Origin: an uncultured Nitrospinota bacterium
GTDB lineage: Bacteria > Nitrospinota > Nitrospinia > Nitrospinales > JAJDAT01
Length of the DNA: 32,000 nt
NCBI GenBank assembly: GCA_964570665.1
Contig: CAZMZH010000007.1
Location: 29,319 to 61,318, forward strand
Direction of reading: 5' to 3'
Shown here piece by piece: positions 5,384-30,844 of this stretch. Positions within the stretch are counted from its first letter, which is position 1; each line of letters starts with the position of its first letter. Both the position numbers and the translations under genes were made by a program. The notes under the pieces were generated by a model. The model did not search any database, had not been told where the DNA came from, and saw nothing but the letters and a program-made list of their open reading frames with translations.

Positions 5384-7099
5384 ATGATCAAATTAAGAAT
5401 ATTTATCAACGTCTTATTTTTTATCATTTTTTTATATGTGAATATAAAAACTAGCGAAGCCGAAATAACCTTTCTTACCTTGCCCGATTCTCCTTATGAA
5501 AATAAGGATTTTTATTTAGCCGAAAAAGAATTAAAAAACCTTCCAAAAAATACCAATTTTATTATTCACATTGGACATAAAACGGATGCACAAGAAGGAG
5601 ATTGTGATGAAAATAATTATAAAGATTTAAGTTTTTTACTAAAACAGTCCCCCCTACCCGTTTTTATAATTCCCGGCGCAAATGTCTATTGGAATTGCAA
5701 AAATAAAAATAAAAGAAATCCATTTTGGGATAAATACTTTGGACAATTTGAAAATAATTGGGATTTAAATTTTTCAGTCGCCAGACAAAAGGAACAAAAA
5801 GAAAACTTTGCGTTTTTATTGGAAAACACCCTTTTTATCGGAATCAATTTATTTGAAAAAAGAGATAGAGAAGTTATTAAATTTAATAAAATATTACGAA
5901 ATAATATTTCCTGGGTTCAAGAAAACTTAACTCAAAATCAAAACTTAGTTAAGAATTTAGTTATTTTCTCTCATGACTTTAGCGGACTTAAAGACGAAAA
6001 TTCTGATTATTTTGCTTGCGGTGAAATTCAATTTAACTCTTGGAATATTCATAAAGATTATAAGCTTTTTAGAGATCAATTTATTGAATTAGCCAAAAAC
6101 TTCAACAAACCAATCCTTTACATTCATGGGAATAAACAGTGTTGGACATATGATCGTCCTTATAAAGAACTAAAAAACATTGAAAGGATTATTTTAGATA
6201 AACTCGGAAATCAACCAATGGTTAAAATCACCGTAGGAAAAGGAGGTTTTGCTATAGATCAAAGAACCCATAATAGATTTGATTTCTACCTTCATGAAGC
6301 GATTCAAGGAAATCCAAGGTCGCAATATTTTCTTGGTTTAGAATACTTAAAAATACAAGACTACGAGAATTCAACAAAATGGCTAACAAAAGCGTCTCTT
6401 CAAAATTACCCTCCCGCACAAATCCTGCTAGGCGAAATGCTTAAAGGCAATAACAATGAAAATAAACTGAAAGATTATGCAAAGGCTATAGAACTGTTTC
6501 AGTTGTCAATAGATCGGAAAAATTTCAATATTAACAACGTCAAAAATAAAAAAACTGATAATACTCCTCTTACATACCAAAAAAGAATTAATCAATTTCA
6601 TAAAGAAGTAATAAAAAACTCTTTATATAAAGCTAATTTCAACCTAGGGACTATGTATTTTTTGGGTCTTGGGACCTCTCAGGACTATAAAAAAGCCTTA
6701 AATTATTTCAAAAAAGCTGGAAAAGGAGTTGGTAGCGCTTATTATAATATTGCAACAATCTACTACAATGGCCTAGGAGTTAAAAAGGATGTCAACGAAG
6801 CCAAAAATTGGTGTATCAAAGGGGCTTTAAATGGAATAAAAGAATGCAGTTTTTTGGTTGGTAACATTTATCGAACGGGTCAAGATGGCGTAAAACCAAA
6901 TTATTTGGAAGCTGTAAAATGGTTTAAGCTTGCAGGAAAACATGGAAAAAGTTTATTTAATCTTGGCGTTTTATATTTTAAAGGCTTAGGAGTCTCGCAG
7001 AATATTAAAACAGCAATCAAATATTTTAAAAATGCTGAAATAAATGGAAGTTTAGAAGCAAAAAAAGTATTAGAAAGTCTCCGCAGCGCTCCCAAATAA
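5384..7099 (+). CDS. secreted protein: degenerate metallophosphoesterase-like N-domain plus C-terminal Sel1-like repeats (paralog 1)
   Basis: Hydrophobic N-terminal signal-like segment ending SEAE. Metallophosphoesterase-like motif positions are PDSPY, IIHIGHKTD, IIPGANVY, IFSHDF and IHGNKQCW, with several metal ligands replaced. The C-terminal half has about 6 Sel1 units (e.g. ANFNLGTMYFLGLGTSQDYKKALNYFKKAG). Confidence 0.7.
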   Translation: MIKLRIFINVLFFIIFLYVNIKTSEAEITFLTLPDSPYENKDFYLAEKELKNLPKNTNFIIHIGHKTDAQEGDCDENNYKDLSFLLKQSPLPVFIIPGANVYWNCKNKNKRNPFWDKYFGQFENNWDLNFSVARQKEQKENFAFLLENTLFIGINLFEKRDREVIKFNKILRNNISWVQENLTQNQNLVKNLVIFSHDFSGLKDENSDYFACGEIQFNSWNIHKDYKLFRDQFIELAKNFNKPILYIHGNKQCWTYDRPYKELKNIERIILDKLGNQPMVKITVGKGGFAIDQRTHNRFDFYLHEAIQGNPRSQYFLGLEYLKIQDYENSTKWLTKASLQNYPPAQILLGEMLKGNNNENKLKDYAKAIELFQLSIDRKNFNINNVKNKKTDNTPLTYQKRINQFHKEVIKNSLYKANFNLGTMYFLGLGTSQDYKKALNYFKKAGKGVGSAYYNIATIYYNGLGVKKDVNEAKNWCIKGALNGIKECSFLVGNIYRTGQDGVKPNYLEAVKWFKLAGKHGKSLFNLGVLYFKGLGVSQNIKTAIKYFKNAEINGSLEAKKVLESLRSAPK

Positions 7100-7280: not shown

Positions 7281-8981
7281 ATGATAAAACCTATACTTTT
7301 TTTAAAAACCTTATTTCTTATTATTATTTTCATATTTACGAATATTGATAACAGCAAGGCAGAAGTAAGTTTTCTTGCCATGGCCGATTCTCCTTATACC
7401 AACAAAGCTTTTTATTTAATTGAAAACGAATTAGAAAATGTTCCTCAAAACACAAATTTCATAATTCACCTTGGGGACATAAAACCAAAAGAAAAGAATT
7501 GTACAGAAAAAGATTATAAAGATTTTAGAGACCTTCTAAAACAATCGCCCATACCTGTTTTTATAATTCCGGGAACTAATGGTTATAGTGTTTGCGGCGA
7601 CCATTCCCAGGCAAAACAATTTTGGGATCAATATATCTTGAAATTTGAAAAAAATTGGAAGTTGAAATTTTTAGTAAATAGACAAAAAGAACAAAAAGAG
7701 AATTTTTCGTTTTTATTAGAGAATACGCTTTTTATAGGAATTAATTTATTCGAAAAAAAGAATCCAGAAAAAAATAGTTATAAAAATATATTAAAAAATA
7801 ATATAACTTGGCTACAAAAAAACTTAAAACAGCATCAAGATCAAGTAAAAAACCTTGTAATCTTTGCCCACGATTTTATCGGTCTAAAAAACAAGAATTA
7901 TTCCAATAAATCTTGCGGGAATATAATTTTAAAGTCTTGGAAAGCCCATAAAAGCAATGACTATTTTAGAAATCATTTTTATTCACTTGTTAAAGAATTT
8001 AAAAAACCTATCCTTTATATCAACGGTAACGATCATTGCTGGACCCATGACCGTCCTTATAAGGGAATAACTTTTTTTGAAAGAATTGTAATAGACAAGA
8101 TTGAAAAATTGCCAATGGTGAAATTTACGATAAAAGATAACAAGTTTCGTTTGGATCAACGAATCAAGGATAGAGAAAACATCTTAATTAAAAAAGCAAC
8201 TTTAGGAGACGTATGGTCTCAATACTTTCTTTCTTCAGAATACTTTAATTTAAATGAACTCCAAAAAGCAAAGAAATGGCTAGCTAAAGCGGCGAACCAG
8301 GAGTTTCCACCTGCCAAAGCTTTACTAGGAAAAATCCTTCAAGGTTTTTTAAATAAAACTTCAGGAGGAAACTATGACCAAGCTAATTTTTTATTACAAT
8401 CATCTATTAAAAAACAAGGCGCTGAAATTGATAATTTCTTAATTGGAAAAAACAATCTTCCATATCAAAAAAGAATTAATCAATTAAAACGAAAAATAAT
8501 AAAAGCTTCAAAATATGAAGCTCATTTTGACTTAGGCTTGATGTACTTTAGGGGGCTTGGGCAAAAACAAAATTATAAGGAAGCGTTAAAACATTACAAA
8601 AAAGCGAGCCAAGGCGTGGGTAATGCCTATTTTAATATTGCTATGTTCCACTTCTATGGTTTAGGAATTGCCAAAAATTCTAATGAGGCCATAAAATGGT
8701 GTACTAAAGGCGCCGTTCATGGGGTTACAGCCTGTATGTTTTTTATTGGCAAATTATATTTGGATGGCCTAGAAGTAAAAAAAGATTATAAAAAAGCCGC
8801 GAAATGGTTTAAATCTGCCGGCAATCATGCCCAAAGTTTATTACATCTAGGTTTTTTATATTTTAACGGTTTAGGAGTACCTCAAGACAATAAAATTGCG
8901 ATGAATTACTTTAAAAATTCTGCTAGAAATGGAAGTCAAGAAGCAAAAAAAATATTAGATATTATTAAAAACAATAAATAA
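7281..8981 (+). CDS. secreted protein: metallophosphoesterase-like N-domain plus Sel1-like repeats (paralog 2)
   Basis: Collinear with the upstream paralog over its full length (ADSPY, IIHLGDIKP, IIPGTNGY, IFAHDF, INGNDHCW). Sel1 units include AHFDLGLMYFRGLGQKQNYKEALKHYKKAS. Has a signal-like N-terminus. Confidence 0.7.
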   Translation: MIKPILFLKTLFLIIIFIFTNIDNSKAEVSFLAMADSPYTNKAFYLIENELENVPQNTNFIIHLGDIKPKEKNCTEKDYKDFRDLLKQSPIPVFIIPGTNGYSVCGDHSQAKQFWDQYILKFEKNWKLKFLVNRQKEQKENFSFLLENTLFIGINLFEKKNPEKNSYKNILKNNITWLQKNLKQHQDQVKNLVIFAHDFIGLKNKNYSNKSCGNIILKSWKAHKSNDYFRNHFYSLVKEFKKPILYINGNDHCWTHDRPYKGITFFERIVIDKIEKLPMVKFTIKDNKFRLDQRIKDRENILIKKATLGDVWSQYFLSSEYFNLNELQKAKKWLAKAANQEFPPAKALLGKILQGFLNKTSGGNYDQANFLLQSSIKKQGAEIDNFLIGKNNLPYQKRINQLKRKIIKASKYEAHFDLGLMYFRGLGQKQNYKEALKHYKKASQGVGNAYFNIAMFHFYGLGIAKNSNEAIKWCTKGAVHGVTACMFFIGKLYLDGLEVKKDYKKAAKWFKSAGNHAQSLLHLGFLYFNGLGVPQDNKIAMNYFKNSARNGSQEAKKILDIIKNNK

Positions 8982-9056: not shown

Positions 9057-9953
9057 TTATGGACGTGGGTGATATTTTTCATGTATTTCACGCAAGCGCG
9101 TTTGCATAACATGTGTATAAATTTGAGTCGTGGAAATATCAGAATGACCCAACATTTGCTGAACCGACCTTAAATCGGCTCCCCCTTCCAATAAATGAGT
9201 CGCAAAAGCATGGCGAAGTGTGTGTGGAGATACAGGTTTTTTGATACCCTCTATTAAGGTATATCTTTTTATAATTTTCCAAAAACCCTGACGAGTCATT
9301 GCTTTACCCCGCCGCGTTAAAAATAATTCTGAAACATTGCGTCCTTTTGTAAAACCGGGACGCGCTCTTAAAACATAATCTTCTACGGCATGCTTGGCAG
9401 CGTCTCCTATTGGAATCAGACGTTCTTTCGAACCCTTCCCAAAAGCTAAAACAAAGCCCATTTGCAAATTAACTTTAGAAGCTTCAAGGTTGATTAGTTC
9501 TGAAACCCGCACCCCAGCCGCGTACAAGATTTCCAACATAGCTTTATCCCGGAGTCCTTCTTGTGTTTTTAAGTCGGGCGCGTTTATTAACCGATCAACT
9601 TCTTCCAAACTCAATACATCAGGAAGTTTTTGTAAAAGCTTAGGCGTTTCTAGTAATTCGGCAGGATTTTTATCGGTGATTTTTTCTTGAATCAAGAATT
9701 CGAAAAACGACCTAATAGACGATTGTAATCTGGCAATTGACCTTGTAGACAGCCCACTCTGCCGAAGCTTTAATAAAAATTCTCTAATATTATTAACGGA
9801 AATATCTTCTAAACGATCGTTTTTAAATTCATTGGCGAATTTGTTCATATCTCTTCTATAAGCTTCCGTCGTGTTTAACGAGCGACGCTTTTCGATTGAA
9901 AGATAATCAACAAATTCTCTTATATAATGTTGCAATTCTATCCTCAGTTCCAA
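9057..9953 (-). CDS. xerD: site-specific tyrosine recombinase XerD/XerC family
   Basis: 298 aa. C-terminal catalytic region HTLRHAFATHLLEGGADLRSVQQMLGHSDISTTQIYTHV, with an N-terminal SAM-like core-binding domain. Confidence 0.85.
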   Translation of the reverse strand: MELRIELQHYIREFVDYLSIEKRRSLNTTEAYRRDMNKFANEFKNDRLEDISVNNIREFLLKLRQSGLSTRSIARLQSSIRSFFEFLIQEKITDKNPAELLETPKLLQKLPDVLSLEEVDRLINAPDLKTQEGLRDKAMLEILYAAGVRVSELINLEASKVNLQMGFVLAFGKGSKERLIPIGDAAKHAVEDYVLRARPGFTKGRNVSELFLTRRGKAMTRQGFWKIIKRYTLIEGIKKPVSPHTLRHAFATHLLEGGADLRSVQQMLGHSDISTTQIYTHVMQTRLREIHEKYHPRP

Positions 9954-10006
9954 CAGTTTTTTTTACGTCACTATGTGGCTAAAATCGTAAGTTCCACTCT
10001 GAATTT

Positions 10007-10052
10007 CATCCTGGTCCTTCGGTAAACTCAGGATAAACTCTGTCCAAGGATC
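10007..10052. repeat. GC-rich hairpin mini-element (REP/MITE-like)
   Basis: catcctggtccttcggtaaactcaggataaactctgtccaaggatc. The arms atcctgg/ccaaggat pair. Same style as the elements at 17580, 17638, 24208 and inside the rhs-locus leader repeats. Confidence 0.5.
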
Positions 10053-10163
10053 ACACCTCGATTCAATAAATCTTTTCCTATATCTACTATATAATAATAG
10101 CAAAAACTCATTTATTATCAATTAGTTATATGCTATTAGATTTTTCATGAATTTAAAACCTAA

Positions 10164-11387
10164 TTACTGACACAAACTTTTCCCTCCTTCTAGAATAATG
10201 CAGTTGGTAGGATGCCCTCCAATACCATATTTTCTATCAGTTACCAATATCTGATTATTTAATATTCTTGCGCCATCTGTTTTCCCCAAATTTATACCTA
10301 AACCGCCGCTTAAGATGGAAGAGTTTTTTATTGTTGGACGGATTGAATTACGCAAATTAACGGCCCAACCTGATGTAGGTCCCTTAAAAATCTTAAAATT
10401 ATCGAAAACGACTTCTGACACATCATTACGGACGCTAATAGGACTGGAAACCCATGAACCTGTGATTTGCGTTTCCTCTAAATAAGCGCCTTTTCCACCT
10501 TTGACATCAATAGCTAATGTATTTTGGAATCCCTCCCCTCCGTCTATTATATTTTTTTTCGTTTTGACTCTCCCCGAATGGATCCGTATTCCATATTGAT
10601 TGCTATTTGAGAGGTATATCTTATTTTCTTTAATGGAAACATTGTTTGAAGAGTTCCCTACGTTAATTGCGGCTACATGATGATTCAAATGACTTATATT
10701 ATTTTTTTCAATTAAAACCTTGATGCTATTAGAAACTTTTATTCCGCTTTGAACGGTAATAGGGGAATTAAATGCAATTCCCGAGATTTCATTACCTATT
10801 AATCGTACTTCTCGACCAACACTTATATAAATACCATGTTGAGTGGTGTTAATAATTTTATTATTTGAAACTAATATTCCATCACCACTTAAGCCAATAC
10901 CAACTGTTGGCCCACCATCGATAAAGTTTTCCAATATTGAAACGTTAGAAACCTTTTCAAGATAGTTGTCTATTTGAATAGCCGCGCGTCCATGGCCTTT
11001 TCCATTTACAAATACAGGTTTTCCATGATTTACAAAACGAATTCCTTTAATCAATATATTTGAGATAGGAAAACCTTTCTCCGCCTGAATAACCAAAGAT
11101 TGTGAAATACTATCGAATATAATGGTCGAAGCTTTTTTACCAGACCCGATAAAAGAAGTATGGGATGTTTTAATTATTATTGGACGCGAAATTTTATAAT
11201 TACCAGGCGGTAAAAAAATTGTTCCTCCGGACGGAGGAAGAGAATCTAGTGTAGTCTGTATCGCGGTCGTGTCGTTGGTTATTCCATCCCCAATAGCGCC
11301 ATATTTTTGAACATTAAGTTTATCGGCGATAGCATTACCTTCAAAAACCAAAATCAGCCCCAAACAAAACCAAAAATATTTCATCAA
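10164..11387 (-). CDS. secreted right-handed parallel beta-helix protein (pectate-lyase superfamily-like)
   Basis: Signal peptide, then KYGAIGDGITNDTTAIQTTLDSL...GGTIFLPPGNYKI, typical of the Pectate_lyase_3 N-terminus. Repetitive I/V-x-N turns follow. The likely ATG is at 11384, overlapping the LOG stop as TGATG. Confidence 0.7.
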   Translation of the reverse strand: MMKYFWFCLGLILVFEGNAIADKLNVQKYGAIGDGITNDTTAIQTTLDSLPPSGGTIFLPPGNYKISRPIIIKTSHTSFIGSGKKASTIIFDSISQSLVIQAEKGFPISNILIKGIRFVNHGKPVFVNGKGHGRAAIQIDNYLEKVSNVSILENFIDGGPTVGIGLSGDGILVSNNKIINTTQHGIYISVGREVRLIGNEISGIAFNSPITVQSGIKVSNSIKVLIEKNNISHLNHHVAAINVGNSSNNVSIKENKIYLSNSNQYGIRIHSGRVKTKKNIIDGGEGFQNTLAIDVKGGKGAYLEETQITGSWVSSPISVRNDVSEVVFDNFKIFKGPTSGWAVNLRNSIRPTIKNSSILSGGLGINLGKTDGARILNNQILVTDRKYGIGGHPTNCIILEGGKSLCQ

Positions 11388-21370: not shown

Positions 21371-21700
21371 CTAAACTTGAAGATTTGCTTTAGGCGTCTT
21401 TGATTTTTGGGAAGAGTTAAATAACTTAATATCTTTGAGATCTCCACCCTTTTCTTCGGCAACTTCTAAGTCGTATTTCTGTTGTAGATTCAACCAGATT
21501 TCTGGACCTGTTCCAAAAAACTTTCCTAATCGTCTAGCGGTATCTGCAGTAATATCTCTTTGCCCATTCAAGATTTGATAAATTCGGTTACTAGGCACAT
21601 TTAGAGCTTTAGCAAATTGATTGCCATTCATTTCAATTTCTTCCAGCTCTTCTGCCAATATTTCTCCGGGATGTATAGGAACTCTCCAATCATTCGCCAT
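21371..21700 (-). CDS. higA: HigA-family antitoxin (XRE HTH), pair 1
   Basis: IHPGEILAEELEE...NRIYQILNGQRDITADTARRLGKFFGTGPEIWLNLQQKYDL matches the HigA/VapI pattern. Lies 11 nt downstream of higB. Confidence 0.9.
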   Translation of the reverse strand: MANDWRVPIHPGEILAEELEEIEMNGNQFAKALNVPSNRIYQILNGQRDITADTARRLGKFFGTGPEIWLNLQQKYDLEVAEEKGGDLKDIKLFNSSQKSKTPKANLQV

Positions 21701-21711
21701 GTTTTTATCCT

Positions 21712-21990
21712 TTAATGATAGTCGACAATTTCCACATCAAGAGCATAGCCATCTTCCCATTTAAAACAAATACGCCACTGATCGTTTATCCTGATACTAT
21801 ACTGGTCTTTTCGATCTCCTTTTAACGCTTCAAATCGATTTCCTGGTATAGCGACCAAAGCCCCCAAAGTTGGGGCGGTCTCCAAAACACGAAGTCGCGT
21901 TAGCGCTTTTCGTGCAATGGGTTTAAATTTTTTTACAAATTCACGGCCATAAAGCTTTTCCGTGTTTTTACATTTAAAACTCTTAATCAT
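21712..21990 (-). CDS. higB: HigB-type (RelE/ParE superfamily) toxin, pair 1
   Basis: 92 aa, MIKSFKCK...RFEALKGDRKDQYSIRINDQWRICFKWEDG...VEIVDYH. Toxin-first gene order is typical of higBA. Confidence 0.9.
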   Translation of the reverse strand: MIKSFKCKNTEKLYGREFVKKFKPIARKALTRLRVLETAPTLGALVAIPGNRFEALKGDRKDQYSIRINDQWRICFKWEDGYALDVEIVDYH

Positions 21991-22006
21991 TCAGCTTTGG
22001 AAACAG

Positions 22007-22027
22007 GATTAACGTACTACGTCAATC
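22007..22027. promoter_or_regulatory. 10-1-10 palindrome, candidate HigA operator upstream of higB-1
   Basis: gattaacgta c tacgtcaatc has one mismatch between arms. It lies 17-37 nt upstream of the higB-1 ATG (21990). Confidence 0.45.
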
Positions 22028-22091
22028 GTAGCAAAAAATAGTTTATCAATCAATTTTCAATTGCTATTTATTCAAGTAAAACAACTGCAAC

Positions 22092-22385
22092 GGGCTCTGT
22101 AGCAGTATAACCCGCTTTCGTCCAACTCGCCTCCGGTCTAATGCAATCGATTGCCGTTTTCATTGCCGGTTTCGGTAATCAATTCGCCAAAAGGACCTAC
22201 TGCATCGTCGCTTGCGCGCTGCCTAACGATTCCACCAGGGACGTGACCGATCGTAAATGGTCGTGATGATAGGTCGCGGCGGTTTCGTTCCCGCTAGAAT
22301 TATAATGCAACCCATGCACCACCTCGTCCACCACCACGCCGCGAAAGTATTGATCCTCCAATTGAAATGTCTGGTAGTAAACGAA
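22092..22385 (-). pseudogene. Rhs core remnant (about 290 bp, frameshifted)
   Basis: Aligns by eye with 23350-23650 and 30400-30700 (..QTFQLEDQYFRGVVVDEVVHGLHY..HDHLRSVTSLVESLGSAQATMQ..). A 1-nt deletion turns TACGGT into TAGGT, giving a stop. It ends at the YYYRA-coding stub. Confidence 0.85.
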
Positions 22386-22426
22386 GTAAAAAATAATATC
22401 TCCATTTAAAAATCAAAATGCACAAA

Positions 22427-22455
22427 TTGACAAACGTCATTTGACATTTTACAAT
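22427..22455 (+). promoter_or_regulatory. sigma70-type promoter of higBA-2, probably giving a leaderless mRNA
   Basis: TTGACA (22427-22432), 17 nt, TACAAT (22450-22455). The higB-2 ATG at 22462 is only 6 nt after the -10 box, with no Shine-Dalgarno. Confidence 0.55.
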
Positions 22456-22461
22456 TAGAAA

Positions 22462-22740
22462 ATGATTAAAAGTTTCAAGCATCGTGGATTGAAAAAGTTT
22501 TTTGAGGATGGTGATTCTCGAAAAATACCACACGATATGTTAGATCGAATACGTTTAATTCTCGCTCGTCTAAATACTGCCCGAAACCTTGAAGCTATGA
22601 ATATTCATTCCTATCATTTGCATGAACTCAAAGGGAATCGCAAAGGAACTTGGAGCGTTACTGCTCGGGCTAATTGGCGGATTACTTTCCGATTTGAAAA
22701 TGGGGACGCTTTTGATTTAAATTTTGAAGATTATCATTAG
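22462..22740 (+). CDS. higB: HigB-type toxin, pair 2
   Basis: 92 aa, MIKSFKHRGLKKFFEDG...HLHELKGNRKGTWSVTARANWRITFRFENGDAFDLNFEDYH. Distinct sequence from pair 1. Confidence 0.9.
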   Translation: MIKSFKHRGLKKFFEDGDSRKIPHDMLDRIRLILARLNTARNLEAMNIHSYHLHELKGNRKGTWSVTARANWRITFRFENGDAFDLNFEDYH

Positions 22741-22752
22741 AAGGAAAAAAAC

Positions 22753-23073
22753 ATGGCCATTAAAAAATATCAAATGAAAAATCCACCTCACCCTGGATTA
22801 GGCGTGAAAGTTGATTGTTTAGAACCTTATGGATTGAGTATTACTAAAGGCGCAAAAATATTAGGTGTTACGAGACAAACCTTAAGCCTTCTGGTCAATC
22901 AAAAAACATCCTTATCGTGGGACATGGCAATCCGGCTTTCGAAGGCCTTTGGATCAACCCCAGAAGGATGGATGGAATTACAATTTCAATATGATTCCGC
23001 ACAAGCCGTTAAACGCGCAAAAAAAATAAAGGTGACCCCCTATCAGGGATCACTAGAACCCGCTTATCAATAA
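22753..23073 (+). CDS. higA: HigA-family antitoxin (HTH), pair 2
   Basis: PHPGLGVKVDCLEPYGLSITKGAKILGVTRQTLSLLVNQKTSLSWDMAIRLSKAFGSTPEGWMELQFQYD. Confidence 0.85.
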   Translation: MAIKKYQMKNPPHPGLGVKVDCLEPYGLSITKGAKILGVTRQTLSLLVNQKTSLSWDMAIRLSKAFGSTPEGWMELQFQYDSAQAVKRAKKIKVTPYQGSLEPAYQ

Positions 23074-23074
23074 T

Positions 23075-23210
23075 GGATCTTCCGTTAAGAACCTTCCGAC
23101 CTCCGGATCGTAATAGTGTGCTCGGTAGTAATATACTGAGGCCCATTCAAGTCCAAAGCTTAAAAAACTGTCCGCCTGAGGCTCTCGAAGGCCGAGCGGC
23201 GGAATACGTT
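23075..23210 (-). repeat. rhs-locus leader repeat copy R1 (truncated) with a 63-bp rhs core stub
   Basis: 23075-23137 encodes YYYRAHYYDPEVGRFLTEDP on the minus strand. 23138-23210 matches 25398-25466 of copy R2, including the hairpin ctgtc.gcctgaggctctcgaaggccgagcg. Confidence 0.8.
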
Positions 23211-24207
23211 ATTCCAAAATGATGAATTAGCGAAAGGAGCCCGCTAGGATCACTAGCATTTATTGGATTATTTTCTACATAAGCATAGAAATTAATTCCA
23301 GCACGGAAACCCATGGAATCTTCCGTTAAGAACCTTCCGACTTCCGGATCGTAATAGCGGGCTCGGTAGTAGTATAACCCGGAATCGTCCAACTCGCGTC
23401 CGGTGTAATGCAATCGGTTGCCGTTGTCGCTGCCGGTTTCCGTTATCAATTCGCCAAAAGGACCGTACTGCATCGTCGCCTGTGCGCTGCCTAACGTTTC
23501 CACCAGGGACGTGACCGACCGTAAATGGTCATGGTGATAAGTTGTCCCGCTTTCGTTCCCGCTAGAATCGTAATGCAACCCATGCACCACCTCGTCTACC
23601 ACCACGCCGCGAAAATATTGATCCTGCAATTGAAATGTCTCGTCATAAATCGCTTCTAAATGCTCCCCTTCTAAATAATAGTTCCGCGTATTAAACCCTC
23701 CATCATTATTCTTGATGCGGTAATCGCTCGGATCGTATTTAAAATAAAACGATTTACCCGGAGTCGACATTCCCGTCACTCGGTTTTTTTGATCGTAAAC
23801 AAAACTCTGTAGAGTCGTGTCGTCGACATTTCGCTTGGTTAATCGATTGCCGTTAGAATCGTACTCGTATTTGGCGACCAAAGGACCCATAACGCTGCCC
23901 TGGCGCACTTCCATTAACTGATTATTGACGTTATAAACGTAAACATGAACGACGCCGTCTTTCGTATGAGTCAATCGATTTCCCACCTTATCGTACGTAT
24001 AAGCATGATCGTTTGCGGTATTTGGCGCTTCCACTCCGATCAAACGATTGAGACTATCGTAGGTATAAAATGTGGTTCCTTCCCCTCCCTGGGGTCCAAC
24101 AGAAACGGTTGTGATATTTCCCACTTTGTCGTAAGTGTACAACGTACGGCTTATTTCCGTTCCTCCTAAACCTTCGTTGACCAAAGACGTCAACCGATTA
24201 TCGGCGT

Positions 24208-24243
24208 CGCACCTCTTGAGCTTGCCCTGAGCTAGCCGAAGGG
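24208..24243. repeat. GC-rich hairpin mini-element inserted in the rhs body
   Basis: cctcttgagcttgccctgagctagccgaaggg is translated as PSASSGQAQE in the upstream ORF. The flanking Rhs-like sequence (..RILSND / DADNRLTSL..) continues in a different frame. Confidence 0.65.
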
Positions 24244-24681
24244 TCGTTTGACAAGATACGATTCACCAATCGTCCCGCTTCGTCGTAGAAATAAGAAACC
24301 TGAACGTGATCCGAATTACTCTGCGCGATCAACCGATTGGCGGAGTTGTATTGATAATTCGTCGTCTTTCCCTGATAATCGGTTTTGGTAGCGACGTTGC
24401 CAACTTTATCGTAAGTCCAACTGAGAGTTTTGTTGGTTGTGGCGCCATTGTGATCGAGCCGTTCGTCGTTTTTACTAATCAAACGATTCTGCTGGTCGTA
24501 GGTGAACGAATAGATGATGCCGCCATTAGCAACCTGTTGCAAATTGCCAAAACTATCGTAAGTGCGCAGTTCCTGTTTGCCGTCATTATAAAAATCGGTA
24601 AATATCAACCGATTCAAGGTGTCGTACGCAAAGAAAAAGTTGTGACTGTAACTATAATAACAGTTATCTAGTCTGAAATAC

Positions 24682-24709
24682 TTGACCCCAAAGCTGTGTT
24701 TGGTAAAAT
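24682..24709 (+). promoter_or_regulatory. candidate sigma70 promoter flanked by CTAGTCT/AGACTAG inverted repeats
   Basis: TTGACC (24682-24687), 16 nt, TAAAAT (24704-24709). ctagtct at 24668-24674 and tagtct-t-agactag at 24715-24728 bracket it. Confidence 0.3.
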
Positions 24710-24715
24710 AAATAT

Positions 24716-24851
24716 AGTCTTAGACTAGTGTCCTGCGGTAGGTGGGTTAAAGGTCGTAGCTTTGGCAACGCCCCGCCCAAAGTAGGGAACTGGGGGTCGG
24801 TTTTCTCTTTACTGCTTCGGCAGTCGCTTGAAAGCTATCCCCCATTTTTTT
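24716..24851 (+). ncRNA. candidate roughly 135-nt structured small RNA, convergent with the 124-aa ORF
   Basis: Lies between the candidate promoter and a terminator-like structure. Contains a perfect ACTGC-TTCG-GCAGT hairpin (24811-24824). No convincing ORF. Purely structural inference. Confidence 0.2.
24791..24851 (+). terminator. terminator-like structure (TGGGGG...CCCCCA stem enclosing a UUCG hairpin, then T7)
   Basis: tggggg (24791-24796) pairs with ccccca (24839-24844), followed by ttttttt (24845-24851). The T-run overlaps the stop codon of the convergent ORF 24850..25224. Confidence 0.35.
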
Positions 24852-25224
24852 AGAACGTCGAAATCAAAAACAATTTTTTATCCTTCCCCTCTTTTTGCTC
24901 GCGTATGTGGATGGTAACGACTATTCCTTTTGACGTGATCCCTTTAAACTCGTTGGAAATACCCATCTGATCCCGTTTTTGATCAGTTAAATCCTTTTTT
25001 CTAACTTTCGCAATTAACTCTAATCCAACAAAGAAGCGACGTTTCCTTCGAGTTCGGTCATTACGGTCATTTGTGATTGCAAGATATCTATCTAAAAAGA
25101 CAGTTCTCTTTTTTCCTAACCCGTTAAAATTAATCCGACCTTCGATTTGTTCAATTTTTTGGTTTATCAGATCGTCCAGCGATTTTCCTTTTTGCGTTGC
25201 AATTTCCGTTTTCAACTTAAGCAT
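24850..25224 (-). CDS. basic 124-aa hypothetical protein in a cassette slot of the rhs array
   Basis: Open frame directly downstream of leader copy R2. Lys/Arg-rich (..NDRNDRTRRKRRFFVGLE..; ..VVTIHIREQKEGKDKKLFLISTF). No family recognised. Confidence 0.5.
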   Translation of the reverse strand: MLKLKTEIATQKGKSLDDLINQKIEQIEGRINFNGLGKKRTVFLDRYLAITNDRNDRTRRKRRFFVGLELIAKVRKKDLTDQKRDQMGISNEFKGITSKGIVVTIHIREQKEGKDKKLFLISTF

Positions 25225-25364
25225 GGAGCGAATTGTACAGCGAAATTAACGCAAACAAAAGCATCCTTTCTCTCTTTTGATTATGACAACAAGCAAGAAT
25301 TAAATTAGTAAACCCAGGCTCACCATGAGAGCGCTGATAGAAGAGAAATAATATGACTGATTTC

Positions 25365-25590
25365 GGAATCGTAATAGCGGGCTCGGTAGTAATATACAGA
25401 GGCTCATTCAACTCCAGAGCTTAAAAAACTGTCAGCCTGAGGCTCTCGAAGGCCGAGCGCCATACGTTAAAATAAAACGACTCCAAAACTTCCAATCAGT
25501 TACAAACCAATTTTCCCAATAAAATTAATTAGCTGTCATCCTTGAGTGAAGCGAAGGATCTACCCCAATGCGGTTTTAGAATTAATTTTC
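25365..25590 (-). repeat. rhs-locus leader repeat copy R2
   Basis: Core stub 25365-25397 (YYYRARYYD-coding). Hairpin elements at 25431-25459 and 25535-25560. Conserved blocks ccaatcagttacaaaccaattttcccaataaaa and ccccaatgcggttttagaattaattttc are shared with R3-R5. Confidence 0.85.
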
Positions 25591-25717
25591 TTATTAATCC
25601 AAAAGTAGTTTTAGCTTAATTTTAAAATGAAATGAAGATGAAAGTTTGTACCTATACATCCTATTTCCTTAATGTTTCCTTCTTGCTGACCTGATAAAGG
25701 AAGAGTATAATTTCCTC

Positions 25718-25987
25718 ATGGCTACTATTACAATCAAATTGGACATTGACAAAAAAGAACAAGGTTGTCTTTTCGAAGTCGACGAAAATGCAGAGCGACA
25801 AATAGAAAAAGAACGTCAACGTTCTGGCAAGGATCGCGATGCAATTATTCTTGACATAGCCCAACGAACACTCTCTCTAATGGAATTCAATGCTATTCGG
25901 GAAGAGTTAGCTCCCTATGCTGAAAAAGCAAATTTGAGCGAAGAAGAAATACTCGCTCTGCCAAGAATGTCTTCAAAAAATAGCTAA
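25718..25987 (+). CDS. putative antitoxin partner of a PIN toxin (VapB-like, possibly RHH)
   Basis: 89 aa. N-terminus MATITIKLDIDKKE resembles an RHH beta-strand start. Lies 12 nt upstream of a PIN gene. Confidence 0.55.
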   Translation: MATITIKLDIDKKEQGCLFEVDENAERQIEKERQRSGKDRDAIILDIAQRTLSLMEFNAIREELAPYAEKANLSEEEILALPRMSSKNS

Positions 25988-25999
25988 CCGATAAAGTAC

Positions 26000-26410
26000 G
26001 TGAGAGTTTTTTTTGACACGAACGTATTGGTGAGCGCTTTTACTAGCGGGGGAATATGCCTTAATCTAGTAAAAAGAACAATTGAAGACACGCAACACAA
26101 CCTGCTCGTAGGCACAGTTATTATTGACGAGCTAAGTCGGATTTTGACTCACCGGTTTAACTACCCTCCCCAAAAATTAGATCGCGTAATAGCCTTCCTA
26201 ATTAAATATAGGGCAATACTTATGCCCAAAACAAAGCCTCCCGTTTCTGTCCGCGATCCCGATGACGAACTGGTGCTCGCCTCTGCGCTGGAAACAGGAG
26301 CAGACATTCTAGTTACAGGAGACAAAGATCTACTAATACTGGGCGACACAGCGGGAATTAAAATAGTAGACCCACGCATGCTTTGGGAGATGTTGACAAA
26401 GGAAGATTAG
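26000..26410 (+). CDS. vapC: PIN-domain toxin (VapC-like, TIGR00305-type)
   Basis: GTG start. MRVFFDTNVLVSAF..., ...DPDDELVLASALETGADILVTGDKDLL gives the acidic PIN residues in the expected order. Confidence 0.85.
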   Translation: MRVFFDTNVLVSAFTSGGICLNLVKRTIEDTQHNLLVGTVIIDELSRILTHRFNYPPQKLDRVIAFLIKYRAILMPKTKPPVSVRDPDDELVLASALETGADILVTGDKDLLILGDTAGIKIVDPRMLWEMLTKED

Positions 26411-26437
26411 CGCATCCGGATTCCTAATCGTCAAATC

Positions 26438-26682
26438 AGGCTCTGTAGTAGTATACGGAAGCTCATTCCATAAGGCAGCCCCGCTTCCGGGCTCTAAAAA
26501 AATGTCACTCTGAGCCTGTCGAAGGCCGAGCGTCGGACGTTAAAATTAAATTACCTCTCTCCCGCCCCAGCCTGTCCTGAGCGAAGCCGAAGGATCTAGA
26601 CCAATTTTTCCAATAAAATTCATTAGCTGTCATCCTTGAGTGAAGCGAAGGATCTACCTTAATGCGGGTTTTGGCTTAATTC
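26438..26682 (-). repeat. rhs-locus leader repeat copy R3 (longest, three hairpin elements)
   Basis: Degenerate core stub aggctctgtagtagtatacgg. Hairpin elements at 26504-26532, 26573-26597 and 26629-26655. Shared blocks as in R2. Confidence 0.8.
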
Positions 26683-26806
26683 TTATTGATTTCAATCGTA
26701 CTATATACGCTATAACATTCAGTACAAAATCCTAACTTGATTGTTTATTTACGAATATTCCCGTAAAATAATTCTATTAAGCTTTTTTGTTACCGGAGAT
26801 TAGGGA

Positions 26807-27052
26807 ATGCCAATTAAAATCCTAGAGCATGTCAAAGCCCAGGAACTTCCAAAATCCTGGAAAAAGGAACTAAATCCCAGCCCCGAGGAAACGTTTCGAA
26901 TTACTATTGAACCCGAAAGCGAGCTGACTGACGAGCCGTTTGACGTAACCCATGATCCTATCTTTCAATTAGAAGGATATGACTCAGATGCGCCTTCTGA
27001 CTTATCTAAAATTTCAGATAAGTTACTTTATGGAAAAAACCATCCTGCATAA
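26807..27052 (+). CDS. putative VapB-like antitoxin
   Basis: 81 aa. Its stop overlaps the PIN gene start (TAATG). The acidic C-terminus ..DPIFQLEGYDSDAPSDLSKISDKLLYG resembles tails I recall from PIN-associated antitoxins. Confidence 0.55.
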   Translation: MPIKILEHVKAQELPKSWKKELNPSPEETFRITIEPESELTDEPFDVTHDPIFQLEGYDSDAPSDLSKISDKLLYGKNHPA

Positions 27053-27459
27053 TGGAAACGGTTTTCCTGGATGCAAATGGGTGGATCGCCCTTTCAAATA
27101 AAAGGGATCAATTAAACGCTAAAGCGGTTAATCGTAATAAAGAACTCCTTCAAAATCAGACTCGCTACCTAACAACCAATTTCGTTCTAGACGAAACCTA
27201 TACCACACTCATGGCAAAGGTAGGAAACTTTGCGGCTGTGGACTTCGGCGAAAGAGTCAGAAACTCAAAATCCGTCACGATTGTTCACATCTCTCCAGAA
27301 ATCGAAGAAGAAGCTTGGCAACTTTTCAAAAAATACTCCGACAAACAATTTTCTTTTACAGACTGCACTTCATTTGTTGTGATGCAAAGATTTAAATTGG
27401 AAAAAGCATTCACAAACGACCATCATTTTGAACAAGCAGGATTTTCAATTCTGTTATAA
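27052..27459 (+). CDS. vapC: PIN-domain toxin (VapC)
   Basis: METVFLDANGWIAL..., ..NFVLDETYT.., ..FSFTDCTSFVVM.., ..FTNDHHF follow the PIN acidic residue pattern. Confidence 0.85.
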   Translation: METVFLDANGWIALSNKRDQLNAKAVNRNKELLQNQTRYLTTNFVLDETYTTLMAKVGNFAAVDFGERVRNSKSVTIVHISPEIEEEAWQLFKKYSDKQFSFTDCTSFVVMQRFKLEKAFTNDHHFEQAGFSILL

Positions 27460-27534
27460 TCAAATTTTATAAACCAAATCCGTTTGCGAGAGAAACCTCA
27501 AAACTCCTTTTACAAAAAAACACTTAATCTAAGT

Positions 27535-27700
27535 GGGCTCGGTAGTAATATACGGAGGCAGAAGAACGCCGTACACTAAAATTAAACTTCTCCATTGCCT
27601 CCAATCAGTTACAACTTAATTTTCCCAATAAAACTCAATACCTGTCATCCTCGAACGAAGTGAAGGATCTACCCCAATGCGGTTTTGAAATTAATTTTCC
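27535..27700 (-). repeat. rhs-locus leader repeat copy R4
   Basis: Core stub gggctcggtagtaatatacgg. Lacks the first hairpin insertion. Hairpin element at 27644-27670. Shared terminal block ccccaatgcggttttgaaattaattttcc. Confidence 0.85.
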
Positions 27701-27775
27701 TTCTGGTTCAGAAGAAGTCTATGAGTAAAATTTTATAATTAAAGAAATGAAAAATATTTCTGGAAAAGATTAATT

Positions 27776-28111: not shown

Positions 28112-28884
28112 TCACTTTGAATAAACTTGTTGCATCATATTATTATTTGGCTTGTTTGGGTAGATTACAAAACCACCTTGTGCAGGTTCGCCCTGACTTA
28201 CCGCATTAATACCAAACCCAATTCCCGAAGCTCTATCTGAGACAATTCGGCCAGTTGCATCACTTGGAATAGAACCATTTGGAACAACGAACTCTCGTGC
28301 TCCACCCTGAGTAAATCCTCCATCTATAAACCCTGGTTCAGTACGATTTCTTGGAATATCAAGTTTAGAAAAGTTGCTTGAAGAAAATTCAAAAAGATGA
28401 AAAGATCCAGGATTCTCAATTATTAGTCGTTCAGCAATTTATTGAGCACTATTCAATCCCTCTAATGCTCCTGCGTCAGCAACAAAAGCATCTGGTCTCG
28501 TTTTTAAATTTAAAAGAAAATCTGGATTGAGGTCTTTAGAAGGAATTGTACGAACTAGATTTTCAGGTATACCGCTCCTTGTAAAAGTGGACGTACAGCT
28601 TGCCCACCGCCAGTAACAAAAGGAATTAATGCACCGCCAACGTCTAAAAGCAATGCAACTCCGTTTGTTAAAGTTAACCCCTCTTCGGCTATAAAAGCGA
28701 GATCGGCAACAATAAATCCTATATCCAATAATGTGTCTGCAAAGTTTCCTGTAGGATCATTTGCGTTAATTGGGTTATTGTGGACATATGCATAAAAATT
28801 AACTCCGGCCTTAAATCCTACAGGATCCTCAGTTAAGAACCTTCCGACTTCGGGATCGTAATAGCGGGCTCGGTAGTAATATAC
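28112..28884 (-). pseudogene. orphan Rhs C-terminal tip CT2 (core stub, PT-TG-like pre-toxin region, unknown toxin domain), disrupted
   Basis: Manual translation gives SVYYYRARYYDPEVGRFLTEDPVGFKAGVNFYAYVHNNPINANDPTGNF-ADTLLDIGFIVADL..LLLDVGGALIPFVTGGGQAVR.. There is then a frameshift near 28560-28610 and an in-frame TAA at 28439-28441. It ends ..GGFTQGGAREFVVPNGSIP..GGFVIYPNKPNNNMMQQVYSK. No start codon; an in-frame TGA lies just upstream. Confidence 0.8.
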
Positions 28885-29014
28885 GGAGGCAGAAGAGCGT
28901 CATACGCTAAAATCGAATTTAGCCAATGCATCCAACCAGTTACAAACAAATTTTTTCAAAAAAAACACCAATCTAAAATTTTGACCCCAATGCGGTTTTA
29001 AAATTAATTTTCCC
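28885..29014 (-). repeat. rhs-locus leader repeat copy R5 (no hairpin insertions)
   Basis: ggaggcagaagagcgtcatacgctaaaat...ccaaccagttacaaacaaatttttt...ccccaatgcggttttaaaattaattttccc is collinear with R4 and R2 minus their hairpin elements. Confidence 0.8.
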
Positions 29015-29075
29015 ACTTAAACAGAAACGATTTTGGTTTATTTTTTCGATTAAAAAAAGAAGGGAGTAAGTATTT

Positions 29076-29615
29076 TTAAGAACTAGAACTTTTTAGCGAA
29101 GAATTTTCTTTAGAAGTTTCTAATTTACTCTCTTTTAGTATTGAAGCAATTTTAGAATAATCAGAACCTATTTTTTTTCCAGCCCAATCAGAATAAACAT
29201 ATTTTAACTTATTATTATTTTCTGAAATAATTATCGAAATTGAATGATCAACTAGAAATTTTTTTTCATATAAGACATCAATGATCTTATTTCTTTCAAT
29301 TAACATTAAATAAGTCAATGAAGTTACTCCAAACAACACATACTTGCTAGTAATCGCTATTCCAAAATGACCAAGAATTAGGGGATCAATATCTTTTCTA
29401 ATTTTTTTACCATTTGATTCACTATATATCTTGAGGACACCTCGACGAACTCGGAAGATCACTTTGTCTTCAAGGTTTTTAATTAATTTATGCCCCAGTA
29501 AAATTCGGGTAATTCCAATAAAACCATAATCTAAGAATACTATCAGAACAATTAATGGAAATATTGCTTCGAGCCAAAAATCCCAACTCACAATCATTTC
29601 TTTTAGGTAGCTCAT
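29076..29615 (-). CDS. membrane protein, putative immunity protein for Rhs tip CT1
   Basis: 179 aa with an N-terminal TM helix (AIFPLIVLIVFLDYGFIGI) and a central hydrophobic segment. Lies 83 nt downstream of the toxin stop on the same strand. Confidence 0.6.
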   Translation of the reverse strand: MSYLKEMIVSWDFWLEAIFPLIVLIVFLDYGFIGITRILLGHKLIKNLEDKVIFRVRRGVLKIYSESNGKKIRKDIDPLILGHFGIAITSKYVLFGVTSLTYLMLIERNKIIDVLYEKKFLVDHSISIIISENNNKLKYVYSDWAGKKIGSDYSKIASILKESKLETSKENSSLKSSSS

Positions 29616-29698
29616 TTAAAAAACTAAAGTCTCAAAAAAATTAGATATTATTGAATAAATTACTGTACTAAAACTTTTTATCTCGAAAATACTTTTTC

Positions 29699-30844
29699 CT
29701 ATTTACTATACACTTGTTGCATAAAATTATTATTGGGTTTATTAGGATAGATCACAAATCCCCCTCCAGCGCCACCGGAATTAGATTGAGCGTTTCCAGT
29801 AAAAAAATTGGAAATACTATTGAATAAATTCTTTGCTCCATCAACAAAATCTCCAATAGCGTTGCTTCGAAAAGCCGATTCAGTATTCGTTATTGTAGGA
29901 CCTACTTCAGGAGTATTAATTCCAAAAGGAGAAAGACCAAACTCGAAAAATGCTTGAACATTATCTTTGGTGCTGGTGGTTGGAAATGTTGCCCCAAATG
30001 TAAAACTTCGCTTTTGAGTAATGGGAAATGATCCGCTAATAGACCTTGATCTACCCTCAAGGTTATCTAGCGTAGTATTTTCATTGCCAAATAAAAAGTT
30101 AACAAACAATCCACCACTCTCGCTTTGTCCTGAAAGGACTCCCCCTTCTTCATGTTGGGTAAAAATACCAAACTCCAATGTTTCCGTATCGATGGCAACA
30201 ATAGTACTTACAGAACCTTTTGCCCCAACTCCTTCGGGAGCAAAACCACCACCGCCTCCAAAATTGAAACCAACAGGCCTTTTCCCAGCTGGATCGTTAA
30301 AACTGATTGGGTTATTATTTACATAAGCATAAAAATTTGGTCCGGCTTCGAAACCTAAAGGGTCTTCAGTGAGGAAGCGGCCAACCTCAGGATCGTAATA
30401 GCGGGCTCGGTAGTAGTATAACCCGCTTTCGTCCAACTCGCGTCCGGTGTAATGCAATCGATTGCCGTTGTCGCTGCCGGTTTCCGTTATCAATTCGCCA
30501 AAAGGACCGTATTGCATCGTCGCCTGTGCGCTTCCTAACGATTCCACCAGGGACGTGACCGACCGCAAATGATCGTGATGATAGCTCGCCCCTGTTTCAT
30601 TACCGCTAGAATCGTAATGGAGCCCGTGCACCACCTCGTCCACCACCACGCCGCGAAAATATTGATCCTGCAATTGAAATGTCTGGTCGTAAATCGCTTC
30701 TAAATGCTCCCCTTCTAAATAATAGTTCCGCGTATTTAATCCTCCATCATTATTCCTGATCCTGTAATCGCTCGGATCGTATTTAAAATAAAACGATTTA
30801 CCCGGAGTCGACATTCCCGTCACTCGATTTTTTTTATTTTCCAT
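29699..30844 (-). CDS. Rhs fragment: last about 187 aa of the RHS core plus a 194-aa Gly/Ser/Thr/Phe-rich C-terminal domain (CT1) of unknown function
   Basis: Core part is collinear and nearly identical to 23330-23790 (..GLYYYRARYYDPEVGRFLTEDPLGFEAGPNFYAYVNNNPISFNDPAG). CT1 spans 29702-30283. The ATG at 30844 coincides with the point where rhs homology begins, so this is an N-terminally truncated module. Confidence 0.8.
   Translation of the reverse strand: MENKKNRVTGMSTPGKSFYFKYDPSDYRIRNNDGGLNTRNYYLEGEHLEAIYDQTFQLQDQYFRGVVVDEVVHGLHYDSSGNETGASYHHDHLRSVTSLVESLGSAQATMQYGPFGELITETGSDNGNRLHYTGRELDESGLYYYRARYYDPEVGRFLTEDPLGFEAGPNFYAYVNNNPISFNDPAGKRPVGFNFGGGGGFAPEGVGAKGSVSTIVAIDTETLEFGIFTQHEEGGVLSGQSESGGLFVNFLFGNENTTLDNLEGRSRSISGSFPITQKRSFTFGATFPTTSTKDNVQAFFEFGLSPFGINTPEVGPTITNTESAFRSNAIGDFVDGAKNLFNSISNFFTGNAQSNSGGAGGGFVIYPNKPNNNFMQQVYSK

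Follow-up and report, generated by a model that had tools for sequence, protein, structure and literature searches.

A conserved C-terminal peptide on unrelated toxins of one Rhs lineage, first seen on two orphan cassettes of an uncultured Nitrospinota bacterium

The DNA analysed here (the window) comprises 32,000 nucleotides of an uncultured Nitrospinota bacterium (Nitrospinia; Nitrospinales; JAJDAT01), taken from contig CAZMZH010000007.1 of assembly GCA_964570665.1, positions 29,319 to 61,318 of the forward strand. The region at 21-31 kb is a decayed Rhs array with six core-end copies. Two minus-strand Rhs cassettes of this array, carrying the toxin tips CT1 and CT2, both terminate in GGFVIYPNKPNNN[F/M]MQQVYSK-stop according to their translation. 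This C-terminal peptide, called the tag below, is the subject of the present work. The C-terminus of CT1 reads ...GGAGGGFVIYPNKPNNNFMQQVYSK-TAG in the minus-strand translation (longer stretch ...NAQSNSGGAGGGFVIYPNKPNNNFMQQVYSK-TAG), and that of CT2 reads ...EPAQGGFVIYPNKPNNNMMQQVYSK-TGA (longer stretch ...NAVSQGEPAQGGFVIYPNKPNNNMMQQVYSK-TGA). The motif scan found no third copy within the window. The coordinates of all the features are presented in Table 1.

The Rhs shell part of cassette 1 was modelled, and the structure model resembles the solved shells of Rhs proteins, TcBC and teneurins. CT1 had no match in Pfam or NCBIfam. In the AlphaFold2 (AF2) model of the 381-aa open reading frame (ORF), strands at residues 191-327 and a helix at 330-349 were predicted with a pLDDT (predicted local distance difference test score) of about 60-82, while the pLDDT was below 50 for residues 350-371 and 40-50 for the tag. 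Two relatives of CT1 were detected: P0120 (36% over 159 aa), which terminates in the tag, and P0246, which terminates in a variant of it. By its position, the 179-aa gene downstream is the putative immunity gene of CT1. Its product has a hydrophobic N-terminus, as judged by eye, and matched no Pfam or NCBIfam family.

Cassette 2 consists of a core stub (YYRARYYDP... from 28878), a glycine-rich segment, a frame change at about 28555-28620, the Ntox10 domain, a linker and the tail. The core stub matched TIGR03696 with an E-value of 4.7e-18 and its core end reads ...NNPINANDPTG. The frame carrying the Rhs core closes at the stop 28555-28557, and the frame carrying Ntox10 and tail 2 has an in-frame stop at 28439-28441. 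CT2 is thus a pseudogene with two mapped stops. The earlier note on this DNA was right about the tails, but it had overlooked the pseudogene status of CT2, the orphan status of the cassettes and the specificity of the tag for one Rhs lineage with accessory genes, described below. The Ntox10 profile match ends about 42 residues before the stop, therefore the linker and the tail are an addition after a complete domain. The Imm27 gene starts 21 nt past CT2. In Zhang et al. 2012 (PMC3482391), Imm27 was named as the primary immunity protein of Ntox10, and the table entry of Ntox10 also gives Imm27, RHS repeats and transglutaminase.

Table 1. Features of the window and, in the last row, of related loci.
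Feature	Position	Strand	Basis or remark
Tail 1, 21 codons for GGFVIYPNKPNNNFMQQVYSK	29702..29764	-	stop TAG 29699-29701; translation, ORF list, motif scan
Tail 2, 21 codons for GGFVIYPNKPNNNMMQQVYSK	28115..28177	-	stop TGA 28112-28114; translation, motif scan
Cassette 1, orphan ORF, 381 aa	29699-30844	-	only the last ~187 residues of the Rhs shell
Rhs shell C-terminal part and Rhs-associated core, ending ...NNPISFNDPAG	30284..30844	-	TIGR03696, E 2.8e-25
CT1 toxin body, beta-rich domain of unknown family, then one helix	29795..30283	-	AF2
Small-residue linker NAQSNSGGAG before tail 1	29765..29794	-	translation
Candidate immunity gene of CT1, 179 aa	29076..29615	-	position, 83 nt after CT1 stop
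Orphan cassette 2, pseudogene	28112..28883	-	translation, TIGR03696, repeat family D3/D5
Ntox10 toxin domain, stop-interrupted	28241..28570	-	PF15520, E 1.6e-28, profile positions 85-192 of 193
Imm27 immunity gene of CT2, 104 aa	27776..28090	-	PF15590, E 1.4e-6, above cut-off
Main Rhs gene remnant, ~490 aa, two ORFs	23147..24632	-	YD repeats, core; RHS_repeat and TIGR03696 matches
Conserved ~200-nt non-coding inter-cassette element	28884..29072	.	upstream of cassette-2 core stub; repeat families D6-D11
Further copies of the inter-cassette element	27532-27759, 26495-26681, 25422-25650		repeat families D6-D11
HigB/HigA toxin-antitoxin modules	21371-21990 and 22462-23073		between Rhs core stubs
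PIN toxins with small upstream ORFs	26000-26410 and 27052-27459		between Rhs core stubs
Conserved accessory gene, directly upstream of full-length tag-bearing Rhs, usually with a second gene	L001 1036-3119; L068 2499-4424; L071 3-1123; L076 14-2114; L115 936-2099		

The two tails were identical at 20 of 21 residues and at 76% of the nucleotides over 63 nt. About 10.8 of the 11.2 synonymous sites differed, which corresponds to a proportion of synonymous differences (pS) of 0.96 against a proportion of nonsynonymous differences (pN) of 0.08. A serine is encoded by AGT in one case and by TCA in the second, and TAG and TGA serve as stop codons. The claim that the same 21-aa tail is encoded by divergent codons on two cassettes was thereby confirmed. 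Comparison of the CT1 tip with the CT2 tip by BLASTP resulted in a sole alignment, the last 31 residues (24/31 identical, E 1e-12). As had been proposed, the toxin bodies are unrelated, CT2 being Ntox10 and CT1 having no Pfam match. Directly upstream and downstream of the tails the DNA identity drops to 25-40%, i.e. the random level, and the similarity in the window does not run on into non-coding DNA.

A profile of the two window tails retrieved nine short proteins with a matching C-terminus. A second profile, built of eleven tails and compared with 1.84 billion cluster representatives, resulted in 493 protein clusters at E<=1e-3 and 99 at E<=1e-10. Among the 150 best matches, the match end coincided with the last residue in about 139 and was within 1-2 residues of it in 10 more. 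The only clear internal tag among these was observed in P0095 (residues 74-100 of 188), where the frame extends 88 residues past ...VYSK; this points to the loss of the stop codon or to an erroneous gene call. The consensus was determined to be A-x-G-G-[FY]-[VL]-[LI]-Y-P-N-K-P-N-[TN]-N-x-[MLI]-x-x-V-Y-x-K-COOH. The logo reads A-x-G-G-[FY]-[VL]-[LI]-Y-P-N-K-[PS]-N-[TN]-N-[MQ]-[MLI]-[QR]-[SQ]-V-Y-x-K, with G-G, Y-P-N-K, both following asparagines, V-Y and the final lysine invariant or nearly so; the glutamine positions are not invariant. The final lysine is the exact end in 117 of 127 tags and the remaining tags add 1-2 residues. Looser variants with YPNKIN, YPSKIN or YPNRLN were also present.

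The five positions before the tag are occupied by G, S, A, T or N in 86% of the cases (142 homologues). An aromatic, helix-like segment, DF[VI]D....F[NS]..FF.G, precedes this linker in 24 of 142 tips. It was located in the window (29795-29860), in the Nitrospinia locus L041 (3480-3560), in L035 (1-95) and in L031, and CT1 has it in common with the main toxin of L041, an unrelated toxin. In some tips the C-terminal module thus extends over about 50 residues.

The distribution of the tag was also studied at the DNA level. One genome per species was scanned with a degenerate pattern, and a match was regarded as true when it had the GG[FY] flank and the terminal VYxK. Of 61 stretches, about 24 were true loci and the rest were chance matches, among them a YPNKPN inside a membrane protein (L064). 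The hosts of the true loci are Beta-, Gamma- and 'Delta'-proteobacteria, Nitrospinia/Nitrospinales, a Bacteroidales metagenome-assembled genome (MAG) and a MAG labelled as Bacillota. The cultured carriers are Thauera sinica CGMCC 1.15731 and Oxalobacteraceae GrIS 1.18. The scan of metagenomes added 188 confirmed matches. In total the tag ranges over Proteobacteria, Desulfobacterota, Nitrospinota and Bacteroidota with hundreds of clusters.

The mode of conservation was determined with 45 distinct tail DNAs from other genomes. Their mean pS was 0.89, i.e. saturated, and the mean pN was 0.18. The major-base frequencies at codon positions 1, 2 and 3 were 0.82, 0.88 and 0.53, respectively. The third-position identity was 0.46 within one array compared with 0.41 between genomes. 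The Rhs core stubs of cassettes 1 and 2 gave similar values, pS 0.74 and pN 0.11, so the tail is conserved in the same manner as the core. The tag is under strong purifying selection as a peptide. Saturated synonymous sites and unrelated flanks rule out a recent DNA exchange or a DNA-level element, which agrees with the view of the earlier note that selection acts on the peptide; the dN/dS-type comparison across homologues that it had proposed points the same way.

A carry-over by recombination, in which the tail would be a 3' homology arm or a scar conserved as DNA, is therefore largely refuted and has hardly any probability left. The cassettes of an array are bounded at the 5' side by the conserved core, and the tag could be regarded as a second conserved boundary. 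The CT1 tail region is also 81% identical between the window and L041 over 90 nt, to about 13 nt past the stop, with different toxin bodies. However, besides the saturated synonymous sites, the nearly random third positions and the random identity of the flanks of the window tails, the tails of the same array are barely closer to each other than the tails of different genomes. The immunity gene lies beyond the tag, so a core-to-tag exchange would split the toxin from its immunity gene. The tag is also conserved over phyla of very different guanine-cytosine content.

Every inspected true instance of the tag was located behind an Rhs core end (NNPxNxxDPxG) or was itself a short decayed remnant in an Rhs array. 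For 28 of 29 cores in the tag-bearing loci, the tag was found 444-804 nt downstream, and 25 of these cores have it in frame. From the core end to the tag, the toxin body comprised 139-218 residues (n=32). Most of the nearest core homologues with a sufficiently long tip end in the tag or its variant. The earlier note had suggested that protein C-termini be searched for the motif and the preceding domains be tabulated, and had regarded absence from other Rhs or polymorphic toxin tips of related genomes as a refutation of its view. The search showed the opposite: a large number of other Rhs toxins have the motif at the C-terminus, with the Rhs core upstream and many toxin families in between.

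The 110 toxin bodies were divided into 65 groups unrelated by BLAST, which is a lower bound. Nucleases were represented by Tox-GHH, WHH, GH-E, Colicin-DNase and Tox-REase-7 (Pfam), and cell-wall enzymes by SLT, Tlde1 and, as judged by eye, VanY-like sequences. The Peptidase_M10 metallopeptidase, Ntox44 and Ntox10 were also matched in Pfam, and glycine-rich hydrophobic tips were recognised by eye. The expected targets of these bodies are in the cytoplasm, membrane and cell wall, therefore the tag is not a part of a catalytic fold, a site of immunity protein binding or a signal for import into one compartment.

A sister group with a core about 40% identical ends in a Cys-rich sequence instead, e.g. 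...CCSQKMGCCERRR and ...EECFKNCEKKCE (P0187, P0192, P0204, P0230, P0238, P0241, P0245, P0255, P0261). These endings may be a second, different conserved ending.

Five independent loci reached the start of the Rhs gene (L001, L068, L071, L076 and L115) and had one common layout, with a common Rhs N-terminal region of about 880 residues (38-47% identity). The full-length Rhs protein of about 2300 aa consists of a signal peptide (by eye), Transglut_core, about 700 unannotated residues, DUF6531, RHS repeats, the core, the toxin and the tag. Transglut_core was matched at residues ~43-190 with E-values of 1e-9 to 1e-12 in the four proteins scanned (P0085, P0110, the L001 Rhs and L076). Asn takes the place of the catalytic Cys (RGN[AD][LV]D at the Cys site) in the three proteins inspected for it, with the His and Asp retained. 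The tag belongs to one Sec-dependent Rhs lineage, and the full-length relatives, which are the source of the class architecture rather than the window, correspond to the 'signal peptide - inactive transglutaminase - RHS' class described by Zhang et al. 2012 (PMC3482391, section 19).

The accessory protein Up2, encoded upstream, starts with a signal peptide (by eye) and includes a region of leucine-rich repeats that gave matches to the internalin family. Cyclase-like repeats were suggested by faint or sub-threshold matches and by a QxxxDGSWG motif seen by eye. Two copies of Up2 were scanned for IPTL-CTERM (TIGR04174): that of L071 gave 22.5 bits at a cut-off of 20.5 and that of L001 had no match. 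The second accessory protein, Up1, is secreted (signal peptide), about 210-270 aa long and probably helical, and belongs to no family. It was recognisable in some loci only, the similarity being weak or absent in L001 and L115. An exosortase-family gene was located near the Rhs locus of L068. No mention of the two accessory genes was seen in Zhang et al. 2012 (PMC3482391), and Up1 and Up2 appear not to have been described previously as parts of an Rhs system.

These neighbours bear on the possibility that the tag is a site of processing or covalent attachment. Here the tag would be cut, or cross-linked by isopeptide formation or transpeptidation, at the Lys or Asn of Y-P-N-K-P-N-x-N or at its last Lys, and an exosortase-processed accessory protein is one candidate for the link. 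The IPTL-CTERM on one Up2 copy and the exosortase-family gene are in favour of it, as are the invariant Lys, the several invariant Asn and the conserved free terminal Lys. In pilins, the Lys of the V-Y-P-K-N motif is the sortase acceptor, and the hydrophobic strand and Y-P-N-K of the tag may be likened to it. However, the N and K of the pilin motif stand in the opposite order. The transglutaminase domain of these Rhs proteins has lost the catalytic Cys, the Gln positions of the tag vary, and no enzyme was consistently linked to the tag. Such a reaction is considered improbable.

The presence of the tag on hundreds of different toxins within one Rhs lineage indicates that it probably serves a common delivery step. 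The tag would be a cargo-independent handle that a conserved partner recognises in a step through which every cargo passes. Rhs toxins are severed from the core and stay enclosed in the shell, their C-terminus being free. The enzyme encapsulated in the related Tc toxins goes into the channel C-terminus first (bioRxiv 10.1101/590430). Considered together, these two properties suggest that the tag is most likely a leading end or docking peptide for the release or hand-over of the toxin from the Rhs shell. It would engage the shell exit, an accessory component or an N-terminal component to begin the release. The tag and the linker had low confidence in both AF2 models (pLDDT ~30-50), which fits with a flexible linear motif read in trans. 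A function as a leading end or docking handle is tentatively favoured, with a probability of roughly 40%. The candidate roles named in the earlier note, a sorting or export tag, a processing determinant and a docking site, are still the right list, and the present data choose none of them.

Several points weigh against this function or lend it no support. No partner of the tag was identified. The AF2 model of P0151 (1157 aa with most of a shell, the toxin and the tag; shell pLDDT 80-95), which was without the N-terminal plug and the 880-residue region, left the toxin and the tag unplaced at a pLDDT of about 30. Docking onto this part of the shell was thus not predicted, which for a model of that extent neither supports docking nor speaks against it. 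The likeness to Tc toxins is an analogy only, as no TcA-like component was seen. In L001 there is an in-frame TAA between a complete toxin and the tag: at 9940-10243, the 2277-aa Rhs protein ends with an HNH-like toxin at the TAA and is followed by 91 codons in the same frame, including a GHH-type-tip segment and the tag. Either a toxin without the tag may be tolerated in this locus, or the copy may be broken by a nonsense mutation or an assembly error. Finally, the identity of the tag across phyla was about 72-79%, compared with 38-56% for the Rhs N-terminal region and Up2. The tag is thus more conserved than the proteins of the system, which fits equally with a partner outside the system.

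Such an outside partner is assumed if the tag is a handle for entry into the target cell. In that case it would, after release, bind a highly conserved component of the envelope, for example a machine for outer-membrane assembly or transport, and so bring any cargo across the outer membrane. The higher conservation would suit a universal target, and the tag is common to toxins acting in the periplasm and in the cytoplasm, so it could serve the first step for both. It is also flexible and exposed in the AF2 models. On the other hand, no receptor is known and the tag is without the terminal aromatic residue of the beta-signal of outer-membrane proteins, ending in Lys as described above. The known entry domains of contact-dependent growth inhibition toxins are located N-terminally to the toxin. 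A handle needed only at the target would also not have to be confined to a single Rhs lineage that has accessory genes of its own. Entry by this route is possible but unlikely.

The lineage restriction is likewise left unexplained if the tag is a signal for degradation or quality control, by which a protease of the producer would destroy toxin that escapes from the shell or is made from orphans. The tag does have the usual format of C-terminal degrons, being an extreme C-terminal, flexible and cargo-independent peptide, and orphan cassettes, as dangerous leftovers, have retained it. However, the known bacterial C-terminal degrons end with non-polar residues, unlike the polar, Lys-ended tag, and self-protection is already covered by the immunity genes. 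We regard this explanation as very improbable.

A bolder version of the favoured delivery function is that the tag is the address label of an unrecognised Rhs delivery pathway of diderm bacteria, in which an accessory protein or the 880-residue module captures every cargo. Up2, in this view a leucine-rich-repeat protein brought to the surface by exosortase sorting, is a candidate captor, and the capture might be covalent via the invariant Lys. This is rather unlikely. If it were true, the pathway would contain a tag-directed, cargo-agnostic loader or releaser, and any protein could perhaps be routed by the addition of about 23 residues.

The surroundings of the cassettes in the window are strongly degraded. 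No full-length Rhs gene with a YD-repeat shell and delivery domain is present in the window, unlike in the related loci, and both tagged cassettes are orphans and silent spares in a degraded Rhs array. The main-gene remnant has a truncated tip without the tail and shares 82-88% identity with the main Rhs protein of L041 over residues 444-910 of the latter. Each copy of the inter-cassette element is located 5' of a core stub and contains ...GTCATCCT[CT]GA[AG][CT]GAAG[CT]GAAGGATCTACCCCAATGCGGTTTT.AAATTAATTTTC... Window copies and the copies in L041 (4765-5058, 6293-6680) are 77-85% identical, and the element is a candidate promoter, recombination site or mobile element. Every type II toxin-antitoxin module (21371-27459) adjoins a copy of it, and such modules seem to have used the orphan array as a landing site. 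Unrelated to the Rhs array, tandem paralogues of 571 and 566 aa are encoded at 5384-7099 and 7281-8981, with signal-peptide-like N-termini and repeated, Sel1-like C-terminal halves as judged by eye.

Polymorphic toxins are generally regarded as conserved at the front, with a tip that is variable up to the stop codon. Like other Rhs/YD-repeat orphan cassettes, those studied here have a core ending in DPxG, a variable tip, an immunity gene and downstream arrays of promoterless spares starting with a core fragment. They differ in that a second conserved module closes the tip. The PT-TG, PT-VENN and PT-HINT adaptors are also conserved, cargo-independent modules beside a swappable toxin; however, they are N-terminal domains, whereas the tag is a C-terminal linear motif of about 23 residues. 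The PEP-CTERM/IPTL-CTERM, LPXTG, GlyGly-CTERM and type IX secretion system C-terminal domain signatures resemble the tag in being C-terminal signatures on unrelated proteins with dedicated machinery, and IPTL-CTERM even occurs on one copy of the neighbouring accessory protein. In contrast to them, the tag has no transmembrane helix, hydrophobic stretch or basic cluster, and it is far shorter than the type IX domain. None of the NCBIfam models of sorting signals matched the 150 tag members or the window ORFs. The tag was also rejected as a beta-signal, for which a C-terminal aromatic residue, usually Phe, is expected instead of Lys.

The cocoon of Tc toxins (TcB-TcC) has in common with these proteins the YD-repeat shell, the autoproteolytic release of the C-terminal toxin and a shell fold match. 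Tc cargo needs TcA, and no TcA-like gene was seen here. We know of no conserved C-terminal motif in Tc cargo. The teneurin C-terminal associated peptide (TCAP) is likewise the extreme C-terminal peptide of a YD-shell protein and has a superficial likeness to the tag (GYFVL...NNIHFMRQ). By alignment, TCAP is a part of the Tox-GHH domain. A complete Tox-GHH was followed by a separate tag about 90-95 residues on in P0199 (Tox-GHH 100-173, model positions 5-78 of 78; tag 269-289) and in P0096 (Tox-GHH 428-500; tag ~604-624). TCAP and the tag are therefore not homologous, and the tag was rejected as a homologue of TCAP or Tox-GHH.

No model of Pfam-A or NCBIfam covers the tag, and the 150 members have only the Rhs core and repeat models in common. 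In the PDB, 0 chains matched the tag at E<=10. The string 'YPNKPN' was absent from the searched literature of about 8 million papers and the matches of 'PNKPN' were irrelevant, as was PMC12096838, in which inactive transglutaminase and Rhs are mentioned. A C-terminal tag was not mentioned in one section of a 2026 paper on bacterial teneurin-like protein, nor did text searches find it in Zhang et al. 2012 (PMC3482391). Within a known kind of system, the tag is thus a conserved module without a previous description.

Contrary to the picture of tips that vary up to the stop codon, one whole Rhs lineage retains a nearly invariant end peptide of about 23 residues behind at least 65 unrelated toxins. 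The universal tag with the two conserved accessory genes provides a concrete handle on the exit from the producer and the entry into the target of Sec-dependent Rhs toxins independent of the type VI secretion system. In metagenomes, the tag is also a simple marker of new toxin-immunity pairs. Should it be a loading or release signal, it would offer a possible route to engineering the cargo of these proteins.

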